Source of the DNA: a virus
Strand: one strand, 5' to 3'
DNA: 64,000 nucleotides
IMG/VR virus record: IMGVR_UViG_3300030328_002122
Span: 81,195-145,194 of that record
A program made the position numbers and the translations under genes. Shown here piece after piece: positions 29,319 to 59,861 of the stretch (positions within the stretch are counted from its first letter, which is position 1; each line of letters opens with the position of its first letter). Under the pieces are notes generated by a model. The model saw only the letters and a program-made list of their open reading frames with translations, was not told where the DNA came from and ran no database searches.

Positions 29319-29353
29319 TTGACTCCATATGCAAAAAATGTTAATATGATTCG
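29319..29353 (+). promoter_or_regulatory. early sigma70-type promoter with TGATTCG at the start region
   Basis: TTGACT-N17-TAATAT, then TGATTCG at 29347-29353. Confidence 0.75.
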
Positions 29354-29377
29354 TAAACAGAGAGAAAGGTATTAATA

Positions 29378-29674
29378 ATGATTTCATATTTGAGTTGTAG
29401 CGAAGGTAAATTAGATTTGCATCATTATGAAAATGGTAACCATGAGATTGTTTGTTCTTCAAACAATGTTAATGAACTTGCAAATTGTCTTGCAAACTAT
29501 GGTTTTGGGGAGTTCTTCAGAACTTCTTCTTCATTAGACTTTGCAGATGAGTATGGGTTTGAAACAATGGATGGTGCTCATGATCTTTTAGAAGCTGCTT
29601 GTATTGAAGCATACAAGATTATTGAGATACATGAAGAATATGAGAAAGGTTTAACTCCTAATTATTTATTATAA
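29378..29674 (+). CDS. early hypothetical protein
   Basis: ORF after promoter and AGAGAGAAAGG leader. Confidence 0.6.
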   Translation: MISYLSCSEGKLDLHHYENGNHEIVCSSNNVNELANCLANYGFGEFFRTSSSLDFADEYGFETMDGAHDLLEAACIEAYKIIEIHEEYEKGLTPNYLL

Positions 29675-29682
29675 ATACTAGT

Positions 29683-29928
29683 ATGAAATATAAAAAGAAA
29701 TCATATAAGTCAGATGAACTTAAAGGTTTGTCGGTATCTGTTCGTAACAATGATGTAAATGGTGCATTGCGTGTTCTTAGAAAACGTCTTGTCAAAGATG
29801 GTATTATTCAAGAATTACGTGAAAAAACTTACTTTCAATCTAGGGGTGAGAAACGTAGGAAAGAAAAGGCAGCTGCAATACGCAGATATAAACGTAAATT
29901 GCAGAAAGAATTAGAAGAGAGATTATAA
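29683..29928 (+). CDS. rpsU: ribosomal protein bS21
   Basis: VSVRNNDVNGALRVLRKRL..DGIIQELRE..YF...GEKRR; late promoter TATAAATA at 29670. Confidence 0.85.
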   Translation: MKYKKKSYKSDELKGLSVSVRNNDVNGALRVLRKRLVKDGIIQELREKTYFQSRGEKRRKEKAAAIRRYKRKLQKELEERL

Positions 29929-29939
29929 GAGAGGTTATA

Positions 29940-30326
29940 ATGAATACTGTGAAAAAAATTAAGAGAAAAAGAAAACCAATGTCAGTTGAACAAAGGTTAG
30001 CCGCAACCGAAAGACTTGCAATTGCAAGGGAGAAAAGGTTGAAAGAAAATCCACCACAATATAAGAATATATGTCCAGAGGTTTTATCTAAACCAGATGA
30101 CTACGCTTTTTCCTTAAAGAAAGTGCGTCAATGGATTAAGACTCAGAAAGAGTTACTTACAGTTGAGAGAAAAGCTGTAAGAGATAATATTAAAGGTGCG
30201 ATTGCAAGAGCTGCTAGTCATGAAGGTTATATTAGACATTGTGAATACTATCTTAAACATGGTGATTGGTGTGATGATTTCTATGGTGAATATCAAGAGA
30301 AGAGAGTAAGATGGAAAAGTCTATAA
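29940..30326 (+). CDS. conserved hypothetical protein
   Basis: KRKPMS.EQR.AA.ERL..ARE...YL..GDW motif. Confidence 0.6.
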   Translation: MNTVKKIKRKRKPMSVEQRLAATERLAIAREKRLKENPPQYKNICPEVLSKPDDYAFSLKKVRQWIKTQKELLTVERKAVRDNIKGAIARAASHEGYIRHCEYYLKHGDWCDDFYGEYQEKRVRWKSL

Positions 30327-30547
30327 AAAGAGTAGAGTTTGAAGAAGCTCATGCAGATATTGTAAAACTAGTTGAAGAACTAGTTACAAAAAAGAATATT
30401 AGTTTATTACAAATTGCAGGGATAATGCAAGCAACAGCAACACGTATATATAAAGAAGTGTTGTCTGAAGATGAGTTTATAAGTTTGATGGCTATGGTAG
30501 TAGATCAATCAACTGAACTAGGAGCAGAGAAAGAAACACTACACTAG
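30311..30547 (+). CDS. hypothetical protein
   Basis: Coupled ORF in operon. Confidence 0.5.
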   Translation: MEKSIKRVEFEEAHADIVKLVEELVTKKNISLLQIAGIMQATATRIYKEVLSEDEFISLMAMVVDQSTELGAEKETLH

Positions 30548-30556
30548 GAATGTATT

Positions 30557-31423
30557 ATGATATTAGTTGATATGAATCAAGTAACCATTAGTAATCTTAT
30601 GATGCAAATTGGTTCTAAAAGACAAAATGATGTAGATGAGAACCTTGTTAGACACATGGTTCTTAACTCTTTAAGAATGTATAGATCTAGATTCTTTGAA
30701 AAATTCGGAGAACTGATATTATGTTATGATAACAAAAGATATTGGAGAAGGGATTATTTTCCAAATTATAAATGTAATCGGAGAAAAGATAGAGCTAACT
30801 CTAATCTAGATTGGAATTTAATATTTGAAACATTAAATACTATTCGTGACGAAATTAGAGAAATCTTTCCATATAAAGTAATAGAAGTTGATGGTGCAGA
30901 AGCAGATGATTGTATTGCGACTATCTGTATGCATATTAACCAAACACCAAATGAATATGAGAAAGTATTGATATTATCAAGTGATAAAGACTTTATACAA
31001 TTACAAAAATATAACTTTGTTACACAGTATAGCCCCGTAAACAAGAAGTTTATCAATGGTATTGATCCCTACCTATATATAAAAGAACATATATTAGTAG
31101 GAGATAGAAGCGATAGTATTCCGAATATCTTATCACCAGATAATACTTTTGTTGATGGATTAAGACAGAAACCTTTCAGTAAAAAAAGAAAAGATTCAAT
31201 TCTTATGTCCAAACAAGAACCAGAAGATTTTTGTAATGCAGAACAATTAAGAAACTATCAAAGAAATAAAACTTTAATTGATTTAGAATGTATTCCAAAA
31301 GATGTGAAAAGAGAAATAATGATTGAGTATCGTAAATCACCAAAAGGTGAAAGATCTAATCTACTAAATTATTTTATACAAAAAAGATTGAAAAATCTTA
31401 TGAATGATATTGGAGATTTTTAG
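30557..31423 (+). CDS. rnh: T4-type RNase H (5'-3' exonuclease)
   Basis: MILVDMNQ, WRRDYFPNYK, EADDCIA, SSDKDFIQL and GDRSDSIPN motifs. Confidence 0.95.
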   Translation: MILVDMNQVTISNLMMQIGSKRQNDVDENLVRHMVLNSLRMYRSRFFEKFGELILCYDNKRYWRRDYFPNYKCNRRKDRANSNLDWNLIFETLNTIRDEIREIFPYKVIEVDGAEADDCIATICMHINQTPNEYEKVLILSSDKDFIQLQKYNFVTQYSPVNKKFINGIDPYLYIKEHILVGDRSDSIPNILSPDNTFVDGLRQKPFSKKRKDSILMSKQEPEDFCNAEQLRNYQRNKTLIDLECIPKDVKREIMIEYRKSPKGERSNLLNYFIQKRLKNLMNDIGDF

Positions 31424-31424
31424 T

Positions 31425-31880
31425 ATGGCTATGAAAACATATACACCACTACTTTCTGAAGTTTTGAAGAAAGTAAACAATGCAAAAACAAAAGATAAAA
31501 AGGTTGCAGTTCTCAAAGAACATGATACTCAACCATTAAGAATAATAATAAAAGGTTCTTTTGATCCTAAAATTGTATGGATGCTTCCAGAAGGTAATGT
31601 TCCATATAAACCTAATGAATCAGAAGAAGGAACTGAACATACAGTTCTTGCAAGAGAAGCAAGAAAATTATACCATTATGTTAAGGGTGGTAATGATAGA
31701 TTACCAACAACAAAACGTGAAACTATGTTTATACAATTGCTTGAAGGGTTACATAAATCAGAAGCAGAATTAGTAATCAATGCAAAAGATAAAAAATTAC
31801 ATCAAATATATAAAGGATTATCTGCAGCTGTTGTTAAAGAAGCGTTTAATTGGAACGATAATTTTAATAGGAGAACATAA
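31425..31880 (+). CDS. conserved T4-like phage protein (DUF6433-like)
   Basis: LPEG.VPY...KRETMFIQLLEGLH..EAEL....KD motif. Confidence 0.7.
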   Translation: MAMKTYTPLLSEVLKKVNNAKTKDKKVAVLKEHDTQPLRIIIKGSFDPKIVWMLPEGNVPYKPNESEEGTEHTVLAREARKLYHYVKGGNDRLPTTKRETMFIQLLEGLHKSEAELVINAKDKKLHQIYKGLSAAVVKEAFNWNDNFNRRT

Positions 31881-31881
31881 A

Positions 31882-32337
31882 ATGGCATTTAAATTATCAC
31901 AAAGATCACTAGATAAATTAGAAGGCGTTGATGAACGTATGCAAAGAGTTGTCAAGGCTGCAATAGAATTGACTAAAACTGACTTTGGCGTGATTCAAGG
32001 TATGAGAACTGAAGCACAACAAAAAGAACTTGTAGCAAAAGGCGCAAGTCAAACTATGAAAAGTAAACATCTAGAAGGTAAAGCAGTTGACCTCATGGCC
32101 TATGTTGGTTCAAGGGGATCATGGGAACTGAATCTTTATGATGATCTTGCAGATGCAATGAAACAAGCGGCTATCCAAGAAGGTGTACAAGTACGTTGGG
32201 GAGCTGCATGGCAGATTGATGATATGCGAGATTGGGATGGTACAATGGAAGAAGCAATGAACGCATATATTGATTTACGCCGTTCACAAGGCAGACGCCC
32301 ATTTATTGATGGGCCACATTTTGAGTTAATGGATTAA
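31882..32337 (+). CDS. M15-family peptidase endolysin (L-Ala-D-Glu type)
   Basis: AGGAG SD before ATG 31882; LSQRS...L.GV, G.RT...Q, SKHL.G.AVD, WG..W and DGPHFEL motifs. Confidence 0.9.
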   Translation: MAFKLSQRSLDKLEGVDERMQRVVKAAIELTKTDFGVIQGMRTEAQQKELVAKGASQTMKSKHLEGKAVDLMAYVGSRGSWELNLYDDLADAMKQAAIQEGVQVRWGAAWQIDDMRDWDGTMEEAMNAYIDLRRSQGRRPFIDGPHFELMD

Positions 32338-32343
32338 AAACTA

Positions 32344-32372
32344 TTGACATTTATATTATGATATGATAGTCT
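32344..32372 (+). promoter_or_regulatory. sigma70-type promoter of small RNA (no TGATTCG)
   Basis: TTGACA-N17-TAGTCT with extended TG. Confidence 0.65.
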
Positions 32373-32378
32373 AATCCA

Positions 32379-32466
32379 TGTGTCGTGGGATTGTTAGTCC
32401 TCTCTCTCTCACTCTCAAAAATCTAATAACCCACGACAACTGAAAACCCTCTTATGAGGGTTTTTT
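32379..32466 (+). ncRNA. putative hairpin sRNA with CU-repeat loop
   Basis: 16-bp stem 32381-32397/32423-32438 (one bulge); 25-nt loop TCCTCTCTCTCTCACTCTCAAAAAT; terminator aaaaccctc-ttat-gagggtttttt; no ORF. Confidence 0.75.
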
Positions 32467-32486
32467 GTTTTGATAACAAAAAAGTG

Positions 32487-32515
32487 TTGACAAATAAAAC
32501 GAATCAGTATATACT
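32487..32515 (+). promoter_or_regulatory. early promoter with CGAATCA in spacer
   Basis: TTGACA-aataaaaCGAATCAgta-TATACT. Confidence 0.85.
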
Positions 32516-32520
32516 GTAAG

Positions 32521-32720
32521 TATAGTTAACAAAAGAGGGAGATTAAAACCAATGACATGGGTATAACGAGGGTAACAGAGTGGGTTACAAGTTTGGTAAA
32601 CTCAAGGGCCTAATACTCTTAAAGAAGTTACTGCATCAAGGGTGGGTGTCCGAAGCTTGATGACAACTGACAAGGACTCAAGAGGGAACTGAAACAATAG
32701 TCGAGTTCCCTCTTTTTTTT
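32521..32720 (+). ncRNA. putative structured early ncRNA (with 4-codon uORF MTWV)
   Basis: Between strong promoter 32487 and terminator 32680-32720; several helices; no ORF longer than a few codons after the SD. Confidence 0.5.
32680..32720 (+). terminator. Rho-independent terminator
   Basis: aagagggaact...agttccctct followed by T run. Confidence 0.8.
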
Positions 32721-32722
32721 AC

Positions 32723-32751
32723 TTGACAAATAAAACGAATCAGTGTATAAT
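32723..32751 (+). promoter_or_regulatory. early promoter with CGAATCA in spacer
   Basis: TTGACA-aataaaaCGAATCAgtg-TATAAT. Confidence 0.9.
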
Positions 32752-32784
32752 ATAGGTATAGTTAATAAGAGAGAGATGTATAAA

Positions 32785-32967
32785 ATGGATATTGCAGTTT
32801 TACAAGACAACATGATTTTCTTTACTGATTTGTTAAATAAATTAGAAAAGAAGAAAAAGAAAACGCCTGGAAATGGTTTTGCAATAATGAAATGCAAAGA
32901 AAAGATTGCAGAAATTAATCTTATCTTTGATAAAATTAATTATAATTCACAAATTACATACGACTAA
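32785..32967 (+). CDS. early hypothetical protein
   Basis: ATG 32785 after AGAGAGAGA leader. Confidence 0.55.
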   Translation: MDIAVLQDNMIFFTDLLNKLEKKKKKTPGNGFAIMKCKEKIAEINLIFDKINYNSQITYD

Positions 32968-33389
32968 TGTATATAGAATTTTCAAAAACAAATAAGAAAC
33001 AACAACGAATCATTGAGGATGCTCTCTGGTTCGCAAAGGCATATCTATTACCTAAACATAAGATTGATGAGATTCATGTTGAGTCTGTAAAAAAATGGAA
33101 TTATAGAGATGGTGATTGTTATGATACAGATGATAGATCCTATCATATAAGAGTTAGAAAGAATATGTCAGAAGATGTTTTGATTAAAACAATCTTTCAT
33201 GAATTTGCTCATATTAAACAATCAATCAAAAAAGAATTTGGTGATATTTTTGGAATTTTGAGTGATGATGCATCATGGATTTCTTATGATGATAGACCTT
33301 ATGAAATGGATGCTTTTAAATTAGAAAATGAAATGTTCGATAAGTATGCTAAAGATGGAAAATTTAAATTTTCTATAGATGATATCTAG
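32967..33389 (+). CDS. zincin-like metallopeptidase
   Basis: TIFHEFAHIKQ...Y..RPYE.DA motif. Confidence 0.75.
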   Translation: MYIEFSKTNKKQQRIIEDALWFAKAYLLPKHKIDEIHVESVKKWNYRDGDCYDTDDRSYHIRVRKNMSEDVLIKTIFHEFAHIKQSIKKEFGDIFGILSDDASWISYDDRPYEMDAFKLENEMFDKYAKDGKFKFSIDDI

Positions 33390-33400
33390 AGGAGAGAGTT

Positions 33401-33604
33401 ATGGGAATGTCAAGTTACGTATTAGATTTTGAAGAAAAATTTTGGGATTATGCTCACGAAATTGTTGGTGAATGTGAATGTTATAAAGAATTTTATAATA
33501 AAATGTTTAAATTTGATGATATTACTACAACCTATTCTATTATAACATGGCCGCACAATGAATTAAATATGTTTTGGGATGAATTTTGGGTTGGAAAACA
33601 ATAA
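33401..33604 (+). CDS. hypothetical protein
   Basis: GAGGAGAGAG leader; ORF. Confidence 0.55.
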   Translation: MGMSSYVLDFEEKFWDYAHEIVGECECYKEFYNKMFKFDDITTTYSIITWPHNELNMFWDEFWVGKQ

Positions 33605-33613
33605 ATACTTGTA

Positions 33614-34048
33614 ATGTTACTTCAAACTGCACTAATATGTATGGCTATGAATGTATATCACGAAGCACGTTCAGAACCTATTGTTGGACAAATTGCTGTC
33701 GCACAAGTTGTTATCAATCGTGTAAATGATAAACGATTTCCAGATACAATTTGTGGAGTTGTTAAGCAAGCAGTTTTAGATAGTAATGGTTTACCTAAAA
33801 AAAATATGTGTCATTTTAGTTGGTACTGTGATGGTGCAGACGATATGCCGAATACAGAAAGTAAATCATGGGAAACTTCTTTGATGGTTGCAAAGACAGT
33901 AATATCTGGAAAGACAGAAGAACTTGTAAGTAATGCAACACATTATCATGCAACTTCTGTTTTTCCATATTGGGCTAAGAATAAAAAATATAAAAGAATT
34001 GCAAAGATTGATAGTCATATATTTTATAGATGGGAGAACAGAAAATGA
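33614..34048 (+). CDS. SleB-like cell wall hydrolase (Hydrolase_2)
   Basis: NVYHEARSE, AVAQVVINRV, FPDTICGVV, FSWYCDG, ATHYHA and HIFY motifs. Confidence 0.92.
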   Translation: MLLQTALICMAMNVYHEARSEPIVGQIAVAQVVINRVNDKRFPDTICGVVKQAVLDSNGLPKKNMCHFSWYCDGADDMPNTESKSWETSLMVAKTVISGKTEELVSNATHYHATSVFPYWAKNKKYKRIAKIDSHIFYRWENRK

Positions 34049-34206
34049 AGTTTGATGAGCGGATATCTTTAAGACAAGAAAATGCAGAATTGAGGCAAGA
34101 AATAAAAATGTTAAAAGAAGAAATTGCATCAATGAATAAGGAAAAATACGGACTCCTAAATAGAATAAAAGAGTTAAGTGATTTAAGAGAAGCGATAATT
34201 AGATAA
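34045..34206 (+). CDS. 53-aa coiled-coil protein, not in ORF track
   Basis: ATGA/TAATG coupling with both neighbours. Confidence 0.55.
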   Translation: MKFDERISLRQENAELRQEIKMLKEEIASMNKEKYGLLNRIKELSDLREAIIR

Positions 34207-34517
34207 TGCCTACATTTAGATTTATGAATAATGAAACTGGCGAACAGTTTGATGACTTTTTGTCAAATTCTAAAAGAGAAGATCTTTTAGAAAAAAATCC
34301 ACACATAACACAAGTACCTACGCCATTTGCAATTGTATCTACAGTTGCAACGACAGTAGATAGTAAAACTGATGATGGTTTTAAAGAAGTGTTACAGAAG
34401 ATTGGTGAAAATCACCCAGGCAGTGAAATAGACGAAAGATACAATAGAAGAAGTGTAAAACAATCACAGACAAAACGAGTGATTGATAAACACAGAAGTA
34501 AATGGAAAGTTAGTTAA
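34206..34517 (+). CDS. conserved T4-like protein upstream of phoH (FmdB-like N-terminus)
   Basis: MPTFRF.N.ETGE...DGFKEVL.KI...HPGS motif. Confidence 0.65.
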   Translation: MPTFRFMNNETGEQFDDFLSNSKREDLLEKNPHITQVPTPFAIVSTVATTVDSKTDDGFKEVLQKIGENHPGSEIDERYNRRSVKQSQTKRVIDKHRSKWKVS

Positions 34518-35224
34518 TGGCTAAAGCAAAAGATATTAGAATTGATGATATGATTTCTGTATCGCCAGTTGGTGATAATCAAAAGAAAGTATTTGAACAT
34601 TATAAAAAAGGAAAGAATATGTTTCTCTATGGTGCAGCTGGTACAGGAAAAACATTTATTTCTTTATATCTTGCATTACAGGAATGTCTAAGAAATGATA
34701 CTAAGTATGATACAGTTTATCTAGTTCGTAGTGCAGTTCCTACAAGAGAAATAGGTTTTTTACCAGGCGATGAAGAAGATAAAACTGCGTTGTTTCAAGT
34801 ACCATATCAGAATATGGTGAGGTTTATATTCTCACAACCAAATGAACACGCATTTTCTTTATTGTATGATAGATTAAAAGGTCAACAAAGTTTGATGTTT
34901 CTGACTACATCTTTTCTACGAGGTATAACATTAGATAATGCAATTATTATTGTAGATGAGTGCCAGAACCTAAATTTTCACGAGCTAGACACTATTATGA
35001 CAAGAGTTGGACAAGATAGTAAGATAATGTTCTGTGGTGATTTCTTTCAGACAGATTTACAAAAACCTTCAGAGAAAGAAGGATTAAAATACTTTATGTC
35101 CATCATATCTAAAATGAGTAGTTTTTCTACAGTAGAATTTAACTTAGGGGATATAGTTCGTTCTGGTCTAGTAAAAGAATATCTTATTAGTAAGATTAAA
35201 ACAGGCCAGGAAAAAAATGAGTGA
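34517..35224 (+). CDS. phoH: PhoH-family ATPase
   Basis: GAAGTGKT, IGFLPG, SFLRGITL, IIVDECQN, TRVG, GD..Q.DL and DIVRSGLV motifs. Confidence 0.95.
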   Translation: MAKAKDIRIDDMISVSPVGDNQKKVFEHYKKGKNMFLYGAAGTGKTFISLYLALQECLRNDTKYDTVYLVRSAVPTREIGFLPGDEEDKTALFQVPYQNMVRFIFSQPNEHAFSLLYDRLKGQQSLMFLTTSFLRGITLDNAIIIVDECQNLNFHELDTIMTRVGQDSKIMFCGDFFQTDLQKPSEKEGLKYFMSIISKMSSFSTVEFNLGDIVRSGLVKEYLISKIKTGQEKNE

Positions 35225-35354
35225 TGAGGATATAAAAGATTTTATTGATTATTTTGGAGAAGATAATATACCATCGCCAGAAAATTATCCAAGAAAATTT
35301 GCATGGTTAATGAGGTGGTACAAAGTAGTGGTAAGGAATAGAGAAAATGGGTAA
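35217..35354 (+). CDS. 45-aa hypothetical protein, not in ORF track
   Basis: MSDEDIKDFIDYFGEDNIPSPENYPRKFAWL; overlaps both neighbours. Confidence 0.55.
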   Translation: MSDEDIKDFIDYFGEDNIPSPENYPRKFAWLMRWYKVVVRNRENG

Positions 35355-35607
35355 AAAGAAAAAAAGAGATAAACAAACTTCTAAAGGTGAAAGACGAAGT
35401 GTTTCTAAAAGTATTACCAAGTCTTTACGTATAGATTTTATAGAATCTGGTCAGAGGGTGGTACGCCAAGCAGAAGCTTTTCGTAAGGGTAAAAAGGTTA
35501 TGGTAACAATGCCTAACCCTAATAAATCTGAAACAAATAGACCTTTTATTCGTGTACCAGCTACAGAAGTTTGGAAAAGAATTTCTTTAAAACCATTGAC
35601 AATGTAA
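35347..35607 (+). CDS. basic hypothetical protein
   Basis: NPNKSETNRPFIRV motif. Confidence 0.6.
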   Translation: MGKKKKRDKQTSKGERRSVSKSITKSLRIDFIESGQRVVRQAEAFRKGKKVMVTMPNPNKSETNRPFIRVPATEVWKRISLKPLTM

Positions 35608-35654
35608 GTTATATTTGATATATTGATTTAAATTAATTATAGAATGGAAATATT

Positions 35655-36365
35655 ATGTTTATACACGAGTCGGTAGATATACCAGAGGTATCTACAAAAA
35701 ACGTCAATCGAAAAAGATTTTATGTGACACCAGAAGGTGGATTATATCCATCTATTACTACAGTACTTTCTCTTAGAAAGAAACAAGGTCTTTCAGAATG
35801 GAGAAAACGAGTCGGTGATGATGTTGCAAATTATATTGCAAGAACGGCTGCAAATCGTGGAACGAAAGTTCACCAGATGTGTGAGGATTTTCTAAACAAT
35901 AAAGAAGTAACTAAAGACAATAGAGATTTTTTACCATATTGTTTATTCACACAAATCAAAGATGTTATCAAAACAAATATAAATAATATATATGCACAAG
36001 AATGTGGATTATGGAGTGATAAATACAAAGTTGCAGGCCGAGTAGATTGCATTGCAGAGTATAACAACATTCCATCTATAATTGATTTTAAAACTTCCAA
36101 ATCAGAAAGAAAAGATGATTGGAACTTAGAGTATTATATACAAGCATCTGCATATGCAGAGATGTTTGAGGAAAGAACAGGAAAACCAATAGAGCAAATT
36201 GTTATTCTTGTGGTTACAGAAGATGGTCATGTTCAAGAGTTTATTAGAAAGAAACATGAGTATTTACCTATGCTTGTTGAAGTTATTGATGAATTTGTAA
36301 TGCAATGGGAAAGAGAAGAAAATGCAAAAAATAATTCTAATAATAACATTTCTGTTAACGCTTAA
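35655..36365 (+). CDS. PD-(D/E)xK exonuclease (Cas4-like phage exonuclease)
   Basis: YPSITTVL, RGT.VH, AGRVDCIAE, IIDFKTS and Q..AYA motifs. Confidence 0.88.
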   Translation: MFIHESVDIPEVSTKNVNRKRFYVTPEGGLYPSITTVLSLRKKQGLSEWRKRVGDDVANYIARTAANRGTKVHQMCEDFLNNKEVTKDNRDFLPYCLFTQIKDVIKTNINNIYAQECGLWSDKYKVAGRVDCIAEYNNIPSIIDFKTSKSERKDDWNLEYYIQASAYAEMFEERTGKPIEQIVILVVTEDGHVQEFIRKKHEYLPMLVEVIDEFVMQWEREENAKNNSNNNISVNA

Positions 36366-50481: not shown

Positions 50482-50536
50482 TTGACATTTGTTATGAAAA
50501 CAGGTATATTAATAGTATAGAGAGAAAGGTGATTCG
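50482..50536 (+). promoter_or_regulatory. early promoter with downstream TGATTCG
   Basis: TTGACA-N17-TATATT; AGAGAGAAAGG-TGATTCG (50530-50536). Confidence 0.75.
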
Positions 50537-50538: not shown

Positions 50539-50703
50539 ATGAAAATTACAACAAAGACAATCGGTAAAAAAACCATTATGACAATAACTGGCTTGACCAA
50601 AAAAGAAATGTCACAGATGGAAGACTTTAAACATTGTTTTCCAATGTTTAATTTAGAACTCCTCAAGTGGGATGATAAAAAAATTACTATGGAGAAAGTA
50701 TAA
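50539..50703 (+). CDS. 54-aa early protein, not in ORF track
   Basis: MKITTKTIGKKTIMTITGL...; first gene after the promoter. Confidence 0.6.
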   Translation: MKITTKTIGKKTIMTITGLTKKEMSQMEDFKHCFPMFNLELLKWDDKKITMEKV

Positions 50704-51244: not shown

Positions 51245-51275
51245 CACGAAACAATATATATGGTATAGTGATTCG
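51241..51275 (+). promoter_or_regulatory. early promoter with TGATTCG
   Basis: TTGACA-N17-TATAGT overlapping TGATTCG (51269-51275). Confidence 0.85.
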
Positions 51276-51292: not shown

Positions 51293-54113
51293 ATGTCTAA
51301 ACAATTTCCAAGAATGTCATTAGCGTCAAGAAATCTTGCACTAAAGACAATCCAAAATTTAAGTCCTATTGAATTAGAAAATATGGCTGCAGATCTTGTA
51401 AAAGTAAGTCCATACATTGCATTACGATTAGAGTTTGCACTTGGGTCATCTTTACAAGATTATGAAGATGAATTAGCAATTGAAGATTTTGATAATAACA
51501 AGGAGAATATATAATGGTTACTATTACTAAAATGAGAAAAGTATCAGAGATACTACACACTATGACACTTAGTGAACTAAATGAAGTTATAAGTATGTGT
51601 AGAGATATCAAGGTTATGAAAGCGAAAGCAGACATAACTGTGGGTATGAGGGTCTATGTTGTTCAGAAAACAAAAAAGACGCCTGGTACTGTGGTCAAAA
51701 TTAACAAGACGAGAGCTCTTGTTGATATGGTAAGATCACCAATCACTGGTGAAACTGCAACATACCAAGTTCCATTTTCAATGTTGGAGGCTGCTTAATG
51801 TGGTATAATTTTAGAGTTATACTGTCTTGGAGTATCGGTATTATGGGTGTTCTCATAATACTTGGTACTGCTGGTGCAGATTGTGATGGTAAATGTATGG
51901 ACAATGCACTTACATTATCCGAAATGTTTGCATGGTTTGGTTATGGTCTTGCGGCCATAACTACTGCATTTTGTATTCATCCTATTAGTAGATAGATGCA
52001 CATATTACCTATCTACTATACGACTACAAATCTCAAACGCAAGCGCAAGAGAGTAGACACACGCAAGTACGAGTCGGAAATGCGTGAACACAACAAGTTT
52101 TTGAAACGCATGAAACTCCCTATGTTAACTCTAGAGGAGTTTATTGCGTATAAACATGGTAAAACTACTGTCAAAGGTCGTGGTGGTGCGATAGAACAGC
52201 GGATATATACTGCAAAGGTCAAAACATCTGACGCAATCGGTAATGGTTTTGTCAAAGAAACTCCTATATATAAAGGAAATGTGGTCATAGGACAAGCGTA
52301 TAACAAGGGTGGACTCCAAGTTCTATCCAATGTTGACGCAAAAGATTCAGCCACTGGTAAGAGGAGATAAATTGTGAGTGACGATAATGTAATTGACATA
52401 TGGAGTCATGATAGGTTTATGAGTCAACCTAATGGTAAACTCATTAAAGAGAAACATATAAGGTATATGTTAGAAGAAGAAGATGGTAATGTGCGAGTAA
52501 AAAAGGTTACAATTAATCGAAAGTTCATGGGTCAAAATGACTACATTGACAGTACAGAAGAGGAGTACCTAACTTAATAAATACCTTCATGTATGATATA
52601 GATGAAAGAGTTCGATGGCTCAAGTATCGTATAGAAAAATTTAAACGAAAACATAAACACTTATATAATAATGGTGAAAACGAAAACGAAAACGAGATTG
52701 TCGATACATTAGAAAAGGTTGTTCCTAGAACAAAAAAGATTGTTCAAGAAGAACCTAAACCTACATCTGATGATGAATTAAGTCAAGAAGAAATCAATTT
52801 TCAGAGGGCTCTAAGGGCCGCACTCAAAAAAACCAAAAAGAAATAGGAGATTCAAATGCTTAATGCTCTACTAGAAGAACACGAAGAACTAGAAAAAAGA
52901 CTAGAAACTGAATTGTTAACAGAAGAAGAAAGTAGAGAAATTAAGAAAAAAAAGTTAAGGGTAAAGGATAGTATCGCTAGTATTAGGCGTAAATATGAAT
53001 TAAAATACGATTACGATCAACATGGTGGGGGAGTTGAAGATTTTGGGTACAATGGGGTCAAGAACGCTTCATTATAACTATGGTGAGTATAAATTAGAAT
53101 TAGAAAGTGCGACAGGTGTACTGTATAGAGGTGAAAAATTACTGTTCAAAGGGTTCTCGTATGAGGCCATACGTTGGTTTATCAATGCATCTGGTGACGA
53201 TCCAAAGATAAAAGAAAAGTTTAGAAATCAATTAAAAATGCGTCAAGAACTGACATTCGATAGAATAAAAGACAAAGAGAAATGGAATAATAAGGAAAAA
53301 AAATGAAATGGGCGATTATATTATATGCGATTATGGGGTATGAAAATTCACTTACAGACACAGAGCTCTTGATTAGTTGGAATTTGACATTTGATACTCA
53401 GCCACAATGCGAGTCATTCTATCGTGGAAACGAAGTTAATTTGCATTCTGGAGTATTGGATTATTCTAAACAAAAATATAAGTCCAAAATGCACGTTATA
53501 GAATTAGGTTGTGTTCATGCAACATCTCAATCTCCTTCAGATATGAAACCAGAACTCAAGGACTTTAATCCTCTATATAAGAAGAGTATTAGTCCAAATG
53601 ATGGACAAAAGTGGAGAGAGAGAAAACACTATGACGACAAATTATTATTACGAAGGAACTGATTATGGAACTATGCACCCATTTCATTACGACTTCTGGT
53701 ATCATCTATTGGTGCCTTGGGATGGTCTAAATTGGTGTATGTTAGTATGTTTATTAATACCTGTGGTGGTATATATTAATGATAGGATGCATTGGTACGA
53801 TTTAAGATGATTTGGATAATACTGTATTTCCTTATCATTTTTATAGGAATTATCTGGATGTTAGCTAGTTTAGTGTGGATTGCAATGGACAATGAAGAAT
53901 AAAAGTCAAAAAATAATCTTTATCACAGATCTGATAGAGAGTAAAATAAACAAACAACGAGAAATTGAGAAGTTTGAAGCCCAACTCAAGATTATCGAAG
54001 AAAGACTCTTTTTCTTACGAAAAGAGAAAGAAATTACAGAAACAATACTTGAATTGATTGAACACGAAAAGATCATGGATCTTAGAAATTATATGATAAA
54101 GGATGATGCATGA
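51293..54113 (+). other. cluster of short early hypothetical ORFs (51293-51514, 51514-51798, 51798-51995, 51996-52370, 52374-52577, 52589-52846, 52856-53077, 53022-53306, 53303-53662, ~53631-53810, 53807-53902, ~53892-54113)
   Basis: Tightly packed, often coupled ORFs with SD sequences; no recognisable families. Confidence 0.6.
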
Positions 54114-54349
54114 AAATATTGATGTACTCCAGACACAAACCACCTTGTCAGTTTTGTGTCCGAGCCAAGTCCATGTTGGACTATTATGGAGTCGAATACG
54201 AAGAAAAACTCCTAGATGATATCAATAATCTGGTAGAGTTCAAAGACAATTACCCTAACATTAAACAAGTACCAGCGATCTTTATTGATGATGAATATAT
54301 TGGTGGATATAATGAACTAGAACAGAGATTATGGAAGAACAAGAAGTAA
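54110..54349 (+). CDS. glutaredoxin
   Basis: CQFC, VPAIFI and IGGY motifs. Confidence 0.9.
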   Translation: MKILMYSRHKPPCQFCVRAKSMLDYYGVEYEEKLLDDINNLVEFKDNYPNIKQVPAIFIDDEYIGGYNELEQRLWKNKK

Positions 54350-54963
54350 AAAGACTTTTTATACACATACCCAAGAATGGTGGAACATCAGTACATTATG
54401 AAATTATGGTGCATGGTATCAAGAAAAAGTCAAAAAGTGAAGAAATAGATATAAAAACATTCGGTCATGATAGATGGAAAGATGTTCCTACAGAGATCAG
54501 ATATACACATCAATCTTTTGCAGTTATTCGTAATCCTTGGGCCAGAGTAATATCGAGATATGTCATGGGAATACCTACTCAACACACAAACGAACATGGA
54601 ACAACATGGAACACCTTTGAAGAGTTCCTAGAAACAAGGCATCTATGGACAGACAAAGAATGGAACGATCCCATAAGAAGTTGGAACACACAATACGATT
54701 ATGTCTGTGATGAAGATAACATTGTACGTTGTGATAGTCTAAGACTAGAACATATTGATGACGAACTAATACCTTATCTACAATTAGATACAAAAAGTAT
54801 CAGGAAAGACAATAATAAATCACATCAAGATTATTATAACAACAATTCCAAATCAATACAAATAGTCGCTGATTGGTATGCACAAGACATAGACTATTGG
54901 GGGTTTGATTTCGATACAAGTGCAACAAAAAATTATCATTATCATAAGGAGAAAAAAATATGA
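54331..54963 (+). CDS. sulfotransferase family 2 protein
   Basis: FIHIPKNGGTS (5'-PSB), RNPWARVIS (3'-PB) and Y..D...WG motifs. Confidence 0.8.
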   Translation: MEEQEVKRLFIHIPKNGGTSVHYEIMVHGIKKKSKSEEIDIKTFGHDRWKDVPTEIRYTHQSFAVIRNPWARVISRYVMGIPTQHTNEHGTTWNTFEEFLETRHLWTDKEWNDPIRSWNTQYDYVCDEDNIVRCDSLRLEHIDDELIPYLQLDTKSIRKDNNKSHQDYYNNNSKSIQIVADWYAQDIDYWGFDFDTSATKNYHYHKEKKI

Positions 54964-55157
54964 TGAAATACTGTATATTATTAATAGGATTATTATTAAC
55001 AAGTGCGTGTAGTACAAACTATGTAACCAAAGAGGGTCAAAGACTACTAGGAAACACAGCCGCAGGGTGTATATTAGGTGAAGTTGCATTTGGTAAATGT
55101 GAAGAAGGTGCAGCCATTGGTGCATTTACAACAGTAATAACAGACCAAAAGAGGTAG
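54960..55157 (+). CDS. glycine-zipper lipoprotein
   Basis: Lipobox TSAC; GNTAAG..LG....G...GAAIGA. Confidence 0.6.
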   Translation: MMKYCILLIGLLLTSACSTNYVTKEGQRLLGNTAAGCILGEVAFGKCEEGAAIGAFTTVITDQKR

Positions 55158-55158
55158 T

Positions 55159-55389
55159 ATGACATTTCAAGTAAATAAAATACATAAGTTACAAGACCAA
55201 ATAGAATCACTCACATACGATTGGGTATGGGAAGATATTTCAGAACATTACGGAGTCGAAGAAGTAGAGGAGTTGAATCAAGAACAAATTGATGAAATCA
55301 TGACCTTTGCAGACAGCGATGAGTGTTACGAAGGGTATGTGGGTATGACATTAAGAAGTATATGTGACTCGTGGGATGCAGACTACTAA
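55159..55389 (+). CDS. acidic hypothetical protein
   Basis: GAGG SD; ORF. Confidence 0.55.
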   Translation: MTFQVNKIHKLQDQIESLTYDWVWEDISEHYGVEEVEELNQEQIDEIMTFADSDECYEGYVGMTLRSICDSWDADY

Positions 55390-56098
55390 ATTCTTCATAT
55401 CAGCTCCATTCGGTAATTATCTAAAGTTCCAGAACGCAATCAGTGTAACAGGTAGTTGGACAATCGAACCACGACCTGGCTTGATCCCACAAGTTCTGAA
55501 AACATTACGATATGTAAGAGTGAATGGAGTATGGGGTTGGAGAAACAAAATAGGTCTAAGGAACGCTGGTATTCATGAAGGTCTAAGACGTATGACCAAT
55601 TCTTTTGATGTAATGAGTATTGCATCAGTACAGAAATACGATTGGATTAACTTTGATAGTATACTACCAGAACATCAAAACATAGAGGTGAATATCAGCT
55701 GTCCTAACCTAGATAAAGACGAAGATGCAACACAATTCCCACACTTTGATACACTTAACAATGGTAAAAGACAATGGTGCATCTGTAAAGTTCCACCTAC
55801 AATAAAAGAATATAAACTAGACCAAATCATCAACGATTATGGATATACACAAATACACGCAAGTAATACACTCGCTAGTGATAAAGGTGGACTATCTGGT
55901 AAAAGACTTGCACCACATACACTTAGAATACTAGACTATATTAAAAGAAAATACCCTCATATAACAGTAATAACAGGGGGTGGAATAACAGAAAAGTATC
56001 AGACACATATCTATAAAGAAAGAGGTGCAGATCATATCAGTCTAGGAACAGTCTGCTTCACGCCATGGAAAGTAAAGAGGATCATAGATGAAACTTAA
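55376..56098 (+). CDS. dihydroorotate dehydrogenase-like FMN protein
   Basis: N.IGLRN.G, EVNISCPN, SNT, GGLSG, GGGI and GAD motifs. Confidence 0.8.
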   Translation: MQTTKFFISAPFGNYLKFQNAISVTGSWTIEPRPGLIPQVLKTLRYVRVNGVWGWRNKIGLRNAGIHEGLRRMTNSFDVMSIASVQKYDWINFDSILPEHQNIEVNISCPNLDKDEDATQFPHFDTLNNGKRQWCICKVPPTIKEYKLDQIINDYGYTQIHASNTLASDKGGLSGKRLAPHTLRILDYIKRKYPHITVITGGGITEKYQTHIYKERGADHISLGTVCFTPWKVKRIIDET

Positions 56099-56285
56099 TA
56101 AGGATATCATTAACTTCTTAGACACTATAAAGAGAAAGGATATCCATACAGAGATAGATTATATATCACCATTGGTTAAAAAGTATGGAATGAATAAGGA
56201 ACTCGCAGAGAGAATAAGACATGAGTATGTATGCCATGTACTTAAAAAGGCTACTGCGTATGTATCATGGGAAAACATGGAATAA
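56088..56285 (+). CDS. hypothetical protein
   Basis: GAGG SD; ORF. Confidence 0.5.
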   Translation: MKLNKDIINFLDTIKRKDIHTEIDYISPLVKKYGMNKELAERIRHEYVCHVLKKATAYVSWENME

Positions 56286-56362
56286 AATGGGATTTGCGTA
56301 CAATTTAAAAAAAGGTATAAAAAAAGGTAGTTAGGTGTTCTCTTTTGTGCATTAAAGGGTGT

Positions 56363-56391
56363 ATTCTATCACGAAAATTTTTTTTTGTCAA
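56363..56391 (-). promoter_or_regulatory. leftward sigma70-type promoter
   Basis: TTGACA-N17-TAGAAT on the minus strand. Confidence 0.6.
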
Positions 56392-56404
56392 GGGGTTTTT
56401 TCAC

Positions 56405-56447
56405 TTGACAGGGAAAACGAATCAGTATATAGTATAAGTATGATTCG
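56405..56447 (+). promoter_or_regulatory. early promoter with two TGATTCG motifs
   Basis: TTGACA-gggaaaaCGAATCAgta-TATAGT, plus TGATTCG at 56441-56447. Confidence 0.85.
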
Positions 56448-56520
56448 GTTTTTAACAATAGCAGTGGTCTTATGGTTGGTAATTGTGGGTGCATATGCGG
56501 CCCTATTATTATCAATTTAA
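56440..56520 (+). CDS. 26-aa leaderless hydrophobic peptide, not in ORF track
   Basis: ATG at the predicted TSS; MIRFLTIAVVLWLVIVGAYAALLLSI*. Confidence 0.5.
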   Translation: MIRFLTIAVVLWLVIVGAYAALLLSI

Positions 56521-56533
56521 TTACAAATATCTC

Positions 56534-56593
56534 TTGACAAACTCTTGACAAGTTGATATGATGACTATGCTAGGTATGATATAAGGTGATTCG
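56534..56593 (+). promoter_or_regulatory. early promoter with downstream TGATTCG
   Basis: TTGACA-N17-TATGAT, duplicated ctcttgacaa, TGATTCG at 56587-56593. Confidence 0.65.
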
Positions 56594-56596
56594 TTT

Positions 56597-57114
56597 ATGA
56601 TAATTTCTAATTGGGATTCAGAGTGTTACATGGGTAGAGATTCGAGTGATTCGGAGTCTATCTATAACACTACAGAGATGCACACAGGGCCAGAGAATAA
56701 GAGAGTTTGTCCTTGTGATTCGTGTCCTCTTTCTCTCCAGTGTATGCAGAACATCACAGAATGTTCTGCATTTCGCAATTGGGCGAGTAAGGGTGATTAT
56801 AATGATAATGATTTAGGTAAGAGATTGAGAGGTTGTTAATGACAAAAGAAACATCTATAGGAGAACTATTACAGTTTGATGAGGCGTTGAAGTCAGACTT
56901 GTTCATACAACAAGCAGAGAATAAGAAACTCTTTGACGAGATGTGTGATAAGAACGATTGGAAGATGCCTTTTAATTGTTCTATACCTACAGAGATGTAT
57001 GCGTCTTATAATGAGGCGTGCATCTGGTTTACTGGTGCAGAGTTAACTGTTATAAACGAATCAGGCGGTGTGTGCTTCTGTGAGTGTGAAGGATATTATA
57101 ACGCAATGGGTTGA
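56597..57114 (+). other. two Cys-containing early ORFs (56597-56839, ~56839-57114)
   Basis: CPCDSC..C...C motif; WKMPF...YNEACIWFTG...C.GYY. Confidence 0.55.
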
Positions 57115-57154
57115 CAAGCACACTATAATATGATATAATATGTGAACTGATTCG
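57111..57154 (+). promoter_or_regulatory. early promoter with TGATTCG
   Basis: TTGACA-N17-TATAAT; TGATTCG at 57148-57154. Confidence 0.85.
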
Positions 57155-57250
57155 GGCCACCCCCTAAAACTGGGAGCCCAATCGTAATCTATAAATGCAA
57201 TAAAGATACAGATAAATATTTCAAATTAAATATAAGCTTATGGTGGTTTT

Positions 57251-57460
57251 ATGAATTGTTGGCATTGTAATACAGAGTTAATATGGGGTGGAGATCATGA
57301 TGCAGATGAAGATGAGTTAGAGTTTTCTATCGTTACTAATCTCTCATGTCCGAATGAGCATTGCAGAGCTTCTGTCTTGGTCTATTTACCTAGAGATGAT
57401 ACAGAGGATATGCCTTGGACAGTTCAAGGTGAGGAGAGTCAATATGACACACAGAACTGA
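57251..57460 (+). CDS. zinc-finger-like hypothetical protein
   Basis: MNCWHCNTELIWGGDHD...NLSCP...C. Confidence 0.7.
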   Translation: MNCWHCNTELIWGGDHDADEDELEFSIVTNLSCPNEHCRASVLVYLPRDDTEDMPWTVQGEESQYDTQN

Positions 57461-57860
57461 AGCAAAACTATTTGAGTATGGCGACTTCATATCCCACTCT
57501 GGTAATACTCTTAAATTTAAGATAGAGTGTGATGCGTTTGATATTGATGATTGGAATACGATTGCAGATATGATTATGACATTCCAAGATGAACCATTTA
57601 GAACTGTCGAAGGTATTCCTAGAGGTGGTATTCCTCTTGCAGATGCGTTAAGGAGATATGCAACAGGCGATCCCTCTCATCAACCTATGATAGTTGATGA
57701 TGTATTTACTACAGGCAAATCATTCATAGATTACTTAGATGAACATTATTCAAATACATTGATGGCATGGGGTTATAAGTGGGTAGTCTTTGCACGAACA
57801 CCTATACATACAACACCAGCACATAAGTTAGGTGTCAAAGCGTTGTTTACCATGCCATGA
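57444..57860 (+). CDS. type I phosphoribosyltransferase (orotate PRTase-like)
   Basis: GDFISHSG, GIPRGG and IVDDVFTTGKS PRPP-binding motif. Confidence 0.82.
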   Translation: MTHRTEAKLFEYGDFISHSGNTLKFKIECDAFDIDDWNTIADMIMTFQDEPFRTVEGIPRGGIPLADALRRYATGDPSHQPMIVDDVFTTGKSFIDYLDEHYSNTLMAWGYKWVVFARTPIHTTPAHKLGVKALFTMP

Positions 57861-58378
57861 AATATAAATCAAATATTTCAAAACCATTATTACTATTAGT
57901 CTTTCTCTTTGCAGTACAAGAAATGATTGCAAGAGAATCACATATGTATGAACTGATAGGGTTCATAGAAAACAATAGTGAATATTCTTACACAGGCACA
58001 CCCTTACCCACAGTAAAAGAAATGTCAAATAAGGCTATTTGTGATCAGTTCAAAATGCTTTACCCATGTGACATTGCAGGCTACTATGATTATCGTACCG
58101 ATCTTATTGTTATCGCAACAACACCTACGGGCGGTATGATTGAGGAAAACTTTTACGAAGTGGTATTAATCCATGAGTTAGTACATTACTTGCAGTATCA
58201 TCAAGGGTATTTTAATGTAGTGGAGTGCAAACAACAATTAGAAGCAGATGCGTTTCGTCTGCAAGACGAGTATATAGATCATATGGGATACGATCCAGCA
58301 AACAAAAACAATCCCCTCTTTGCTCTGATGGCAAGTATGTGTAGAGGTGATAACAGAGGTGGTCATGGGAGTATGTAA
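57857..58378 (+). CDS. secreted HExxH metalloprotease-like protein
   Basis: Signal peptide; VLIHELVHYLQ...C...LE.DA..LQ. Confidence 0.7.
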   Translation: MKYKSNISKPLLLLVFLFAVQEMIARESHMYELIGFIENNSEYSYTGTPLPTVKEMSNKAICDQFKMLYPCDIAGYYDYRTDLIVIATTPTGGMIEENFYEVVLIHELVHYLQYHQGYFNVVECKQQLEADAFRLQDEYIDHMGYDPANKNNPLFALMASMCRGDNRGGHGSM

Positions 58379-58724
58379 AAAAATGATTCAAAAAATCGGA
58401 AAATGGTTCGGAAGAGTTTGTATAAGTTGGAGTATCTTTGTGAATACTTTGTTTGGTGGAAAGAATAATCAAACTGTGAGTGCAAGACAGTACTTTAGAC
58501 AATTACAGAATAAATGGAATATTTGTTTTTTGATTAATGGTTTCTTCTGGTGGGAAGAAGATCATTGTAAAGACAGCTATAATAAATGGGAAGTGATTAA
58601 TAATGCCATGAAGTATTATGATGAATACAAAGAGAAGTATTCTGTTAATGCGTATGAGTTGGCAGAAGATTATACAGAGGACAAAGATCCTTTGCATGAT
58701 TATTATCGTTTGATGAGTCAGTAA
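58365..58724 (+). CDS. hypothetical protein
   Basis: S...N...GG...QT.SAR...I...F.....HC motif. Confidence 0.55.
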   Translation: MGVCKKMIQKIGKWFGRVCISWSIFVNTLFGGKNNQTVSARQYFRQLQNKWNICFLINGFFWWEEDHCKDSYNKWEVINNAMKYYDEYKEKYSVNAYELAEDYTEDKDPLHDYYRLMSQ

Positions 58725-58727
58725 CTC

Positions 58728-58762
58728 TTGACATTGTTATCATAACATGGTATACTGATTCG
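58728..58762 (+). promoter_or_regulatory. early promoter with TGATTCG
   Basis: TTGACA-N17-TATACT overlapping TGATTCG (58756-58762). Confidence 0.85.
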
Positions 58763-58792
58763 TAGTTAACAATAGAGAAGAGTGTATATATT

Positions 58793-58975
58793 ATGAAACT
58801 TACTGATAAGCAATTTAAGGAAATTCAATCTAGAATGAATGAACTTATAGAAATCAAAAAAAATCTACCAGATTTAGTTAATGACTTAGGTTGGGAATTT
58901 GAAAGAATGACTAGCTCTGGTCAAGAAACCTTAAATAAAATATGCAAAATTATTGGTAATCCCCCTTTTAGTTGA
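58793..58975 (+). CDS. early hypothetical protein
   Basis: First ORF after the promoter; L.WE..RM.SSGQE. Confidence 0.55.
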   Translation: MKLTDKQFKEIQSRMNELIEIKKNLPDLVNDLGWEFERMTSSGQETLNKICKIIGNPPFS

Positions 58976-58984
58976 AAAAAAGAC

Positions 58985-59019
58985 TTGACTTTGTTCTCAG
59001 AACATGGTATAGTGATTCG
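58985..59019 (+). promoter_or_regulatory. early promoter with TGATTCG
   Basis: TTGACT-N17-TATAGT overlapping TGATTCG (59013-59019). Confidence 0.85.
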
Positions 59020-59045
59020 TAAACGAGAGAAAGAGAGAGAAAATA

Positions 59046-59516
59046 ATGGCATATATTTCAACTGAAGATGTTAGACATATCCGAAACACTTTGAAAAAAG
59101 AACTTCCACAGTATAAATTTTCTGTGGTTCGTGATCATCATTCAAGTGTTTCTGTTTCTATTATGAAAGGCCCTGCCTTCAAAGATTGGAACTATAGGGA
59201 TAGGTGGACTAACGAAATTAAAGTTGGTTCTTTAAATGATGGTGAACATCACCAAATCAATCATCACTACACAGAAGAGTTCTACGGAAAAGAGAATGCA
59301 AAAATCTTAGATAAAATCTATAAGATTATGAAAGTTGCACCTTCTTTGAATGGTGGAAAAGAATGGTATGATGATTCAGATGCCATGACAGATTATTTTG
59401 ATACTGCATACTATATGCATATCGGAGTTGGTAAGTGGGATAAACCTTATGAGGTTGTTGACCATCAGTTGGATTCGTTGGTTGATGCGTGTAAAAATAG
59501 TTTGGAGGCTGCGTAA
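59046..59516 (+). CDS. LPD29-like early protein
   Basis: IR..LK...P..KFSV...D.SDAMTDYFD..YY motif. Confidence 0.6.
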   Translation: MAYISTEDVRHIRNTLKKELPQYKFSVVRDHHSSVSVSIMKGPAFKDWNYRDRWTNEIKVGSLNDGEHHQINHHYTEEFYGKENAKILDKIYKIMKVAPSLNGGKEWYDDSDAMTDYFDTAYYMHIGVGKWDKPYEVVDHQLDSLVDACKNSLEAA

Positions 59517-59824
59517 TGAATTTAGTACATGAGAAATTTAATAATTCTGATTTGAAGCTTCCTATTGAACAGAGAAACATTTATACAACAATGTTTCTGG
59601 ATTATGTATGGGGATTTTACAATCATGTTGATGGTGTCTATCCTATTGATGGGTTGACTAAAGATATGGTAGTCAAAGCAACTAACAAGTATTTAAATAG
59701 ATGTTTAGAAGAAAATAATACTTGCAATTGGGGTGATGGCGATTCCTTAGATAGAGAAAGGGTACGAGATATAATCCTTGACGATAATAATCTAGGACAT
59801 GAAGATTATTTTTCAAGATTTTAA
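59516..59824 (+). CDS. hypothetical protein
   Basis: F..YV..FY....G.YP...GDSLDRERVRD motif. Confidence 0.6.
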   Translation: MNLVHEKFNNSDLKLPIEQRNIYTTMFLDYVWGFYNHVDGVYPIDGLTKDMVVKATNKYLNRCLEENNTCNWGDGDSLDRERVRDIILDDNNLGHEDYFSRF

Positions 59825-59832
59825 TTATTTAC

Positions 59833-59861
59833 TTGACACAGAAAACGAATCAGTATATAAT
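59833..59861 (+). promoter_or_regulatory. early promoter with CGAATCA in spacer
   Basis: TTGACA-cagaaaaCGAATCAgta-TATAAT. Confidence 0.9.

Follow-up and report, generated by a model that had tools for sequence, protein, structure and literature searches.

A positioned TGATTCG element in the early promoters of an uncultured marine T4-like phage and its possible reading by host GcrA

The early promoters of an uncultured marine T4-like myophage carry a 7-bp word, TGATTCG, at a few fixed positions and in fixed orientations relative to the -10 hexamer. The phage is represented by a 145,194-bp IMG/VR virus record (IMGVR_UViG_3300030328_002122; 33.4% GC, estimated for the record to be 95% complete), and the window analyzed here is the 64,000-nucleotide stretch from base 81195 to base 145194 of that record, to which positions refer unless stated otherwise. 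The element is real, positioned, oriented, conserved, and recurrent in many uncultured phages. Judged by its distribution and conservation, it is a selected cis-regulatory element of sigma70-type early promoters, in the form of a 7-bp asymmetric site. The best single explanation, which we hold at about an even chance, is that these boxes are GcrA-type sites read at early promoters by the GcrA of an alphaproteobacterial host, since the word, its placement, and its orientation each correspond to those of a well-studied system. The candidate reader is a monomer riding on the RNA polymerase holoenzyme, most likely host GcrA.

Enrichment and geometry of the boxes

The window contains 17 copies of TGATTCG or its reverse complement, CGAATCA, where dinucleotide-preserving shuffles give 3.69 +/- 1.87, and none of 100 shuffles reached 17. 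The whole genome contains 18 copies, 16 of which lie between 29 and 60 kb of the window, in regions of small early genes. When 7-mers were compared between intergenic and coding DNA with no motif given, TGATTCG ranked third (11 intergenic, 7 coding, 0.93 expected, p=1.5e-10), behind only T4 late-promoter words around TATAAAT, and TTGACA-containing words ranked lower. Plain GANTC is not enriched in the window (155 versus 195 expected); the comparison of both words with background that the earlier note had proposed thus limits the enrichment to the extended word.

Strong promoters were identified with a strict screen for the TTGACA-N17-TATAAT type, and box centers assume that +1, a predicted start, is the seventh base after the -10. 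A box is present in 10 of the 22 strong promoters of the genome, where about 0.1 would be expected by chance (as estimated from how often the word arises in the shuffles). Each of the 12 promoter boxes matches TGATTCG exactly. In the promoters screened, boxes at -19 are always reversed, and those at -4 or at +5 to +22 are always forward. The three geometries and the promoter coordinates were first described in the earlier note and were all correct when we reread the sequence. The same is true of its statement that the promoters of primase (24235), exonuclease (35596), transfer-messenger RNA (tmRNA), and gp32 have no box; for the last two, none lies near either start. Outside the window, a weaker word, TGATTCT, is found in two further promoters, at -4 and +16.

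In class A, TTGACA is followed by 7 nt, the reversed word CGAATCA centered at -19, 3 nt, and the -10. This arrangement is found in four promoters, which, like all those below, lie on the plus strand. P32487 (32487 to 32515) consists of TTGACA at 32487-32492, CGAATCA at 32500-32506 (about -19), and the -10 TATACT at 32510-32515; it is preceded by a stem-loop and T-run, and its box is conserved at 7 of 7 bases in the ortholog on G403, a related contig introduced below. P32723 (32723 to 32751) has CGAATCA at 32736-32742 (-19) and the -10 TATAAT, as does P59833 (59833 to 59861), with CGAATCA at 59846-59852 (-19) and orthologs at L057, L078, and L090. The fourth, P56405 (56405 to 56447), has two boxes, CGAATCA at 56418-56424 (-19) and TGATTCG at 56441-56447 (+5), which form an inverted pair, CGAATCA-N16-TGATTCG, around the -10 TATAGT at 56428-56433. 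The same region contains a divergent minus-strand promoter (56391).

In class B, the last T of the -10 hexamer is the first base of a forward TGATTCG, which is thereby centered at -4. The strict screen scored three such promoters: P51241 (51241 to 51275; -10 TATAGT, box at 51269-51275, orthologs at L153 and L169), P58728 (58728 to 58762; -10 TATACT, box at 58756-58762), and P58985 (58985 to 59019; -10 TATAGT, box at 59013-59019). The fourth is P29319 (29319 to 29353), which reads TTGACT, N17, TAATAT, with TGATTCG at 29347-29353, and is conserved in G403. Class C comprises four forward boxes downstream of the -10, at +5 to +22, one of which is the second box of P56405 (56441). In P57111 (57111 to 57154), TTGACA-N17-TATAAT is followed by TGATTCG at 57148-57154 (about +6). 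P50482 (50482 to 50536) has its box at 50530-50536 (about +17), ending 3 nt before an ATG at 50539, and P56534 (56534 to 56593) has its box at 56587-56593 (about +22), before an ATG at 56597; the role of these last two is ambiguous.

The fixed spacing of the boxes from the -10 and -35 argues for a role in transcription initiation. We consider it very improbable that the word instead marks DNA for another role, whether as a target of a homing or recombination nuclease, as a methylation mark linked to replication, or as a leader signal acting in RNA. A role of this kind would accommodate a cluster of GANTC sites at 56587 to 56722, the overlap of two boxes with a Shine-Dalgarno-like AGGTGAT, and the position of the 57148 box at the head of a conserved noncoding element that is also present in the SAR11 phage Mosig. 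Class A boxes are located upstream of the start, however, and therefore cannot act in RNA. The cluster (plus strand) holds six GANTC sites in 135 bp, mostly inside the small open reading frame (ORF) at 56597-56839, with full TGATTCG words at 56587, 56647, and 56716; it might be a hub sensitive to methylation, or a feature akin to an origin.

Conservation in relatives and occurrence in IMG/VR

Conservation was assessed in a relative, IMGVR_UViG_3300020460_000013 (G403; 101 kb, 83.6% mean protein identity to the present phage), in which 11 of 17 strong promoters are boxed. Across 11 orthologous promoter pairs, 79 of 80 box bases are identical between the two phages, compared with 66 of 66 bases in the -35, 61 of 66 in the -10, and 849 of 958 (0.89) among the other bases of the promoter region. 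The box is kept as well as the -35 and better than the other promoter bases, and it is therefore under purifying selection. At P57111, the box lies 8 nt after the -10 in both phages while the intervening bases differ; in more distant orthologs (L150, L161, and relatives), the box abuts the -10, so that the word has been kept and its distance changed.

An exact scan of IMG/VR for the class A pattern, TTGAC-N8-CGAATCA-N3-TATA, returned at least 160 matches in at least 118 stretches and at least 112 sequence families, including at least 30 multicopy loci with two to four copies each. A scrambled heptamer of equal composition in the same geometry was found in 52 stretches from 30 families, with no multicopy locus. 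Counted by stretches, TGATTCG written forward in the class A slot looked as common as the reversed word (119 stretches), but these represented only 37 families and no multicopy locus, and the forward arrangement was rejected as an equivalent. One abundant uncultured phage group (L307, L311, L312, and about 46 others) has this forward arrangement in a near-identical promoter on 49 contigs, reading TTGACA, agttggt, TGATTCG, tta, TATAAT.

The class B pattern was found in 27 IMG/VR stretches; these loci also hold class A and downstream boxes, and vice versa, and the orientation rule holds across the class A and class B loci. No box was present in any of 186 strong promoters of control viral loci. 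The same geometry recurs in apparently unrelated phage lineages, including contig L071, which is akin to roseophage DSS3P8. A BLAST comparison of the promoter cassettes and the multibox IMG/VR loci with isolate phages revealed no isolate with the cassette, L071 being the only one of these loci to resemble an isolate (DSS3P8), and a 50-kb stretch of DSS3P8 itself showed no TGATTCG enrichment (5 versus about 5 expected).

Promoter cassettes shared with phage Melnitz

The closest isolate to the present phage is the OM43 phage Melnitz, which matches 96 of its proteins at a mean amino acid identity of 61.5%; the SAR11 phage HTVC008M matches 65 at 48.9%. The gp32 protein gives the same order as the whole-proteome comparison, with identities of 75.7% to Melnitz, 60.7% to Mosig, and 60.1% to HTVC008M.

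The promoters of the present phage come as stereotyped cassettes in which a stem-loop terminator precedes a sigma70 promoter, and these units are repeated before small ORFs throughout hyperplastic regions. Read from the sequence, a GC stem and T-run precede the promoters, for example, those at 29319, 32487, 32723, and 56405, as in promoter-early stem-loop (PeSL) cassettes, and the class A copies have about 50 nt in common. T4-type PeSL cassettes were reportedly described by Arbiol et al. in 2010. Both the T4 cassettes and those of Melnitz resemble the present ones in combining a stem-loop terminator with a strong sigma70 promoter before small ORFs in hyperplastic regions. Melnitz keeps the same scaffold of TTGACW, spacer tttgttatgaaaacatg, -10, and then ataggtatagttaa, and both the tttgttatgaaaacatg-type spacer and the ataggtatagttaa-type sequence after the -10 are common to the two phages. 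In contrast to the present phage, the Melnitz and T4 cassettes have no TGATTCG: the 12 copies in the Melnitz genome all lie away from promoters, and none of its 34 strong promoters is boxed. A missing box in a phage of OM43, whose class has no known GcrA, agrees with reading by GcrA. Relative to Melnitz, the box of the present phage takes the place of the spacer palindrome in class A and of the segment after the -10 in class B.

This shared scaffold bears on whether a separate reader is needed at all. The word might be intrinsic to a mobile T4 PeSL-type cassette, either contacting polymerase directly or spreading by duplication or gene conversion, and the repetition of stereotyped terminator-promoter units before small ORFs, the 50-nt likeness of the class A copies, and the scaffold held in common with Melnitz are what such a history would leave. 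We nonetheless judge it improbable. The word occurs at three places, in two orientations relative to the -10, and in different cassette backgrounds; it is conserved like the -35 while adjacent spacer bases change; the P57111 orthologs keep it at differing distances from the -10; and Melnitz has the cassette without the word.

Palindromes occur in the class B spacers as well, with TGTTCTCAGAACA at 58992-59004 in P58985 and a TGTTnnnnnAACA-type sequence, TGTTATCATAACA, at 58735-58747 in P58728. The class B spacer palindrome is also present, in the form tttgttatgaaaacatg, in most Melnitz early promoters (L002-L004), and a regulator common to the clade might use it as an operator.

Correspondence to GcrA sites

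The identification of the word as the preferred GcrA motif, made in the earlier note, holds exactly: TGATTCG is the Caulobacter GcrA consensus, with YGAKTCK as its broader form (PMC4647560, PMC7987155). GcrA is a monomer whose C-terminal domain holds sigma70 domain 2 and whose N-terminal domain reads N6-adenine-methylated GANTC; most of its boxes are either spacer boxes, at -20 +/- 1 or -30 +/- 2, or lie downstream, between +5 and +30 (PMC9976885). The box of PcsM is written GAATC at -22 to -18, and the better box of PmipZ is TGAGTCG at +12 (PMC9976885). In the phage, the class A boxes place GAATC at -21 to -17, in the same reading as PcsM, and the boxes past the start share the forward orientation of the PmipZ box. 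Eight of the 12 boxes, the four at -19 and the four at +5 to +22, therefore match GcrA boxes in word, position, and orientation. The class B boxes would suit a reader that engages the closed complex and is released when the complex opens, a mode proposed for downstream boxes (PMC9976885).

The phage promoters thus share with the Caulobacter GcrA/CcrM promoters PcsM and PmipZ (PMC4647560, PMC5887438, PMC9976885) the same word, a sigma70 -35/-10 frame, and a single asymmetric site. Unlike those promoters, they combine the box with near-consensus TTGACA/TATAAT on a 33% GC genome, have 16 sites in 31 kb, include an additional class at -4, have no class at -30, and are putative rather than established targets of GcrA and CcrM. 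The idea of coupling a phage program to host cell cycle circuitry has precedent in the CtrA sites of phiCbK-like phages and in phage gcrA and ccrM homologs (PMC9437464). In those phages CtrA sites cluster, while a GcrA-matrix scan of alphaproteobacterial phages gave no positional signal (Mascolo et al. 2022, PMC9437464); here, in contrast, a GcrA-type word lies inside the promoters of a phage without gcrA.

If host GcrA is the reader, GcrA-loaded host RNA polymerase would be drawn to the best GcrA word, placed in reverse at -19, beside the -10, or just past the start. GcrA would then help the open complex to form, as it does at PcsM and PmipZ of Caulobacter, and the phage would thereby capture host polymerase for many small early genes without AsiA/MotA-type factors. 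The identity of the reader, the class of the host, methylation of the sites by host CcrM or a phage beta-class methyltransferase, and a role in timing are all points that we infer. A broader scheme, possible if on balance doubtful, extends to a widespread clade of marine T4-like phages and to unrelated phages with the same promoter geometry. Methylated boxes on injected DNA would capture GcrA-bound polymerase, and hemimethylated or unmethylated progeny DNA, or the phage methyltransferase, would reset the promoters, giving an early-to-late timer that replaces AsiA/MotA.

Candidate readers and the phage methyltransferase

The phage genome has no match to PF09010 or PF09114, the AsiA and MotA families, and with these the basis for T4 middle promoters was not found. 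The earlier note had proposed that GcrA, from the host or as a phage homolog, replaces T4 MotA-type control; the absence of AsiA and MotA agrees with this proposal, and its phage-homolog branch gains no support, as no gcrA was found in the phage. In the putative host class, GcrA scored above the Pfam cutoff in 257 of 401 sampled alphaproteobacterial genomes. Among these are single-contig genomes of 1.2 to 1.4 Mb and 28 to 33% GC that have GcrA and a CcrM-like enzyme (490 to 581 bits) and are GANTC poor; they can be called SAR11-like on class, size, and GC only, and they show that suitable candidate hosts exist. None of these statements depends on two unpublished genomes in the sample (G042 and G242). 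A CcrM homolog has been reported in SAR11 (Gonzalez et al., PMC3973325), and Pelagibacter was clustered with organisms having CcrM and GcrA but not CtrA (Brilli et al., PMC2877005).

A beta-class N6A/N4C methyltransferase is encoded at G000:C1:62414-63754, about 17.4 kb before the window, between genes for a gp46-like nuclease subunit and a TIGR03299-like protein. It aligns to CcrM and DpnA only in the DPPY (catalytic) and FxGxG (S-adenosylmethionine-binding) blocks, with about 270 residues between them unmatched. Relatives of the enzyme number 410 in IMG/VR, but Melnitz, HTVC008M, and Mosig have none. Among the four complete genomes compared, gene and boxes are both present in the present phage and both absent from the other three, too small a sample to tie one to the other. 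The flanks of 80 homologous methyltransferase loci contained no boxes, and fragments bearing the gene have few TGATTCG. The gene is missing from the box-bearing fragments G403-G407, although these are only 25 to 63% complete and its neighbor is missing as well. An attempt to deduce its specificity from site avoidance was abandoned because the signal was too weak (observed/expected ratios near homologs of 0.36 to 0.42 for GATC and 0.80 for GANTC).

The word could also be recognized by something unrelated to GcrA, either an early or virion protein of the phage or another host protein, for which it would serve as an activator site or a later shut-off operator; we regard this as rather unlikely. 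The present phage and G403 share 47 proteins that are absent from Melnitz and HTVC008M, several of them small and basic, and a phage-encoded reader therefore stays in contention, although a Pfam search of 20 early ORFs found no DNA-binding family. All of the box positions (-19, -4, and +5 to +22) are ones where a bound protein would affect polymerase, and the inverted pair around the -10 at 56418-56447 would suit such a factor, as would the host of the nearest cultured relative (OM43, without GcrA) and the unboxed promoters of cultured SAR11 phages. A single asymmetric 7-bp site is, however, short for the usual dimeric phage regulator, and the recurrence of the geometry in apparently unrelated lineages, including the DSS3P8-like contig, is easier to explain by a host factor in common than by a phage gene in common. 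The exact GcrA word, in a GcrA position and orientation, would moreover be a coincidence.

Host and evidence against reading by GcrA

Reading by host GcrA must be weighed against several observations, the first of which concern the host. The nearest isolate, Melnitz, at 61.5% identity, infects a bacterium outside the Alphaproteobacteria; OM43 belongs, to our knowledge, to a class without GcrA. The phage has an alpha-type permuted two-piece tmRNA, confirmed by Rfam, which the earlier note had taken to indicate an alphaproteobacterial host. We dropped it as host evidence because Melnitz, an OM43 phage, carries the same two-piece alpha-type tmRNA (PMC9004378). Genome bins were uninformative as a guide to the host, since gp32 relatives in GTDB assemblies fall in bins of many phyla; the best of them (66% identity) is in a Prochlorococcus single-cell assembly, and boxes were found in none of these gp32 relatives.

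Promoter boxes are likewise absent from four cultured SAR11 phages. HTVC008M has no TGATTCG and none of its 15 strong promoters is boxed; HTVC019P has no TGATTCG; HTVC010P has 3 copies, none in a promoter; and Mosig has 14, but none placed as in a sigma70 promoter. SAR11, the most obvious candidate among low-GC alphaproteobacterial hosts, thus lends no support to reading by GcrA. HTVC008M and HTVC019P in fact purge GANTC, with 43 sites in 147 kb against 252 to 456 expected and 6 sites in 42 kb against about 133 expected, respectively. Their near freedom from GANTC looks like strong avoidance of sites that are targeted or marked in HTCC1062. HTVC008M also has only 2 TCGA (L006-L008; HTVC019P is L148). 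With no box in either the OM43 phage or the phages that infect SAR11 strain HTCC1062, the box-bearing clade probably has some other kind of host.

The phage's own genes and the boxes themselves supply the remaining points. The 95%-complete genome has no match to PF07750 at E<=1 and hence no detectable gcrA, and its PF01555 beta-class methyltransferase, at 82 bits against a cutoff of 830 for the NCBIfam CcrM equivalog, is not a CcrM ortholog; the search of the full genome for gcrA or ccrM-like genes advised by the earlier note thus yielded neither a gcrA nor a CcrM ortholog. Four of the boxes, those of class B at -4, are outside the published ranges of GcrA boxes. The boxes at 50530 and 56587 read AAGGTGATTCG immediately before the ATG, overlapping a Shine-Dalgarno-like AGGTGAT, and may be plain ribosome-binding sequence; because of this overlap, ten boxes in nine promoters are counted as secure. 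Finally, GcrA showed no preference for the extended motif in Brevundimonas (PMC7987155), and the preference for TGATTCG may not hold across the class.

Implications

Whichever protein reads it, the element is real and under selection. If that protein is GcrA, this would be the first lytic phage in the literature searched, in which we found no published description of GcrA-type boxes in phage promoters, to build a site for a host methylation reader into its early promoters. Phage gene timing would then be tied to DNA methylation and the host cell cycle in abundant ocean bacteria, and the early transcription of T4-like phages without AsiA/MotA would be accounted for. The arrangement TTGACA, 7 nt, CGAATCA, 3 nt, TATAAT would also serve as a sequence marker for assigning uncultured phages to GcrA-bearing (alphaproteobacterial) hosts. 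If another protein reads the word, it would be a new promoter-specific regulator common to many marine phages.

Additional observations

Downstream of P57111, a conserved noncoding element at 57148-57215 consists of the TGATTCG box, a C-rich run, AAAACTGG, AATCGTAATC, and a terminal late-promoter word, TATAAATG. The element is kept in L150, L161, L165, L168, and G403 and even in the SAR11 phage Mosig (L437), and its ends (GATTCG and CGTAATC) could pair. A riboswitch behind the 57148 box was also sought, but Rfam gave no credible match across 56300-57400.

Across the whole 145-kb genome, CCGG occurs once and CGCG never, with GATC (415 sites) and GANTC (331 sites) tolerated. Melnitz avoids GATC (23 sites), so that its restriction-avoidance footprint differs from that of the present phage.

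Three host-like genes were found among the early cassettes, encoding a Na/Pi-cotransporter fragment (PF02690, 28776-29255), a sulfotransferase (PF03567, 54331-54963), and a dihydroorotate-dehydrogenase-like protein (PF01180, 55376-56098).

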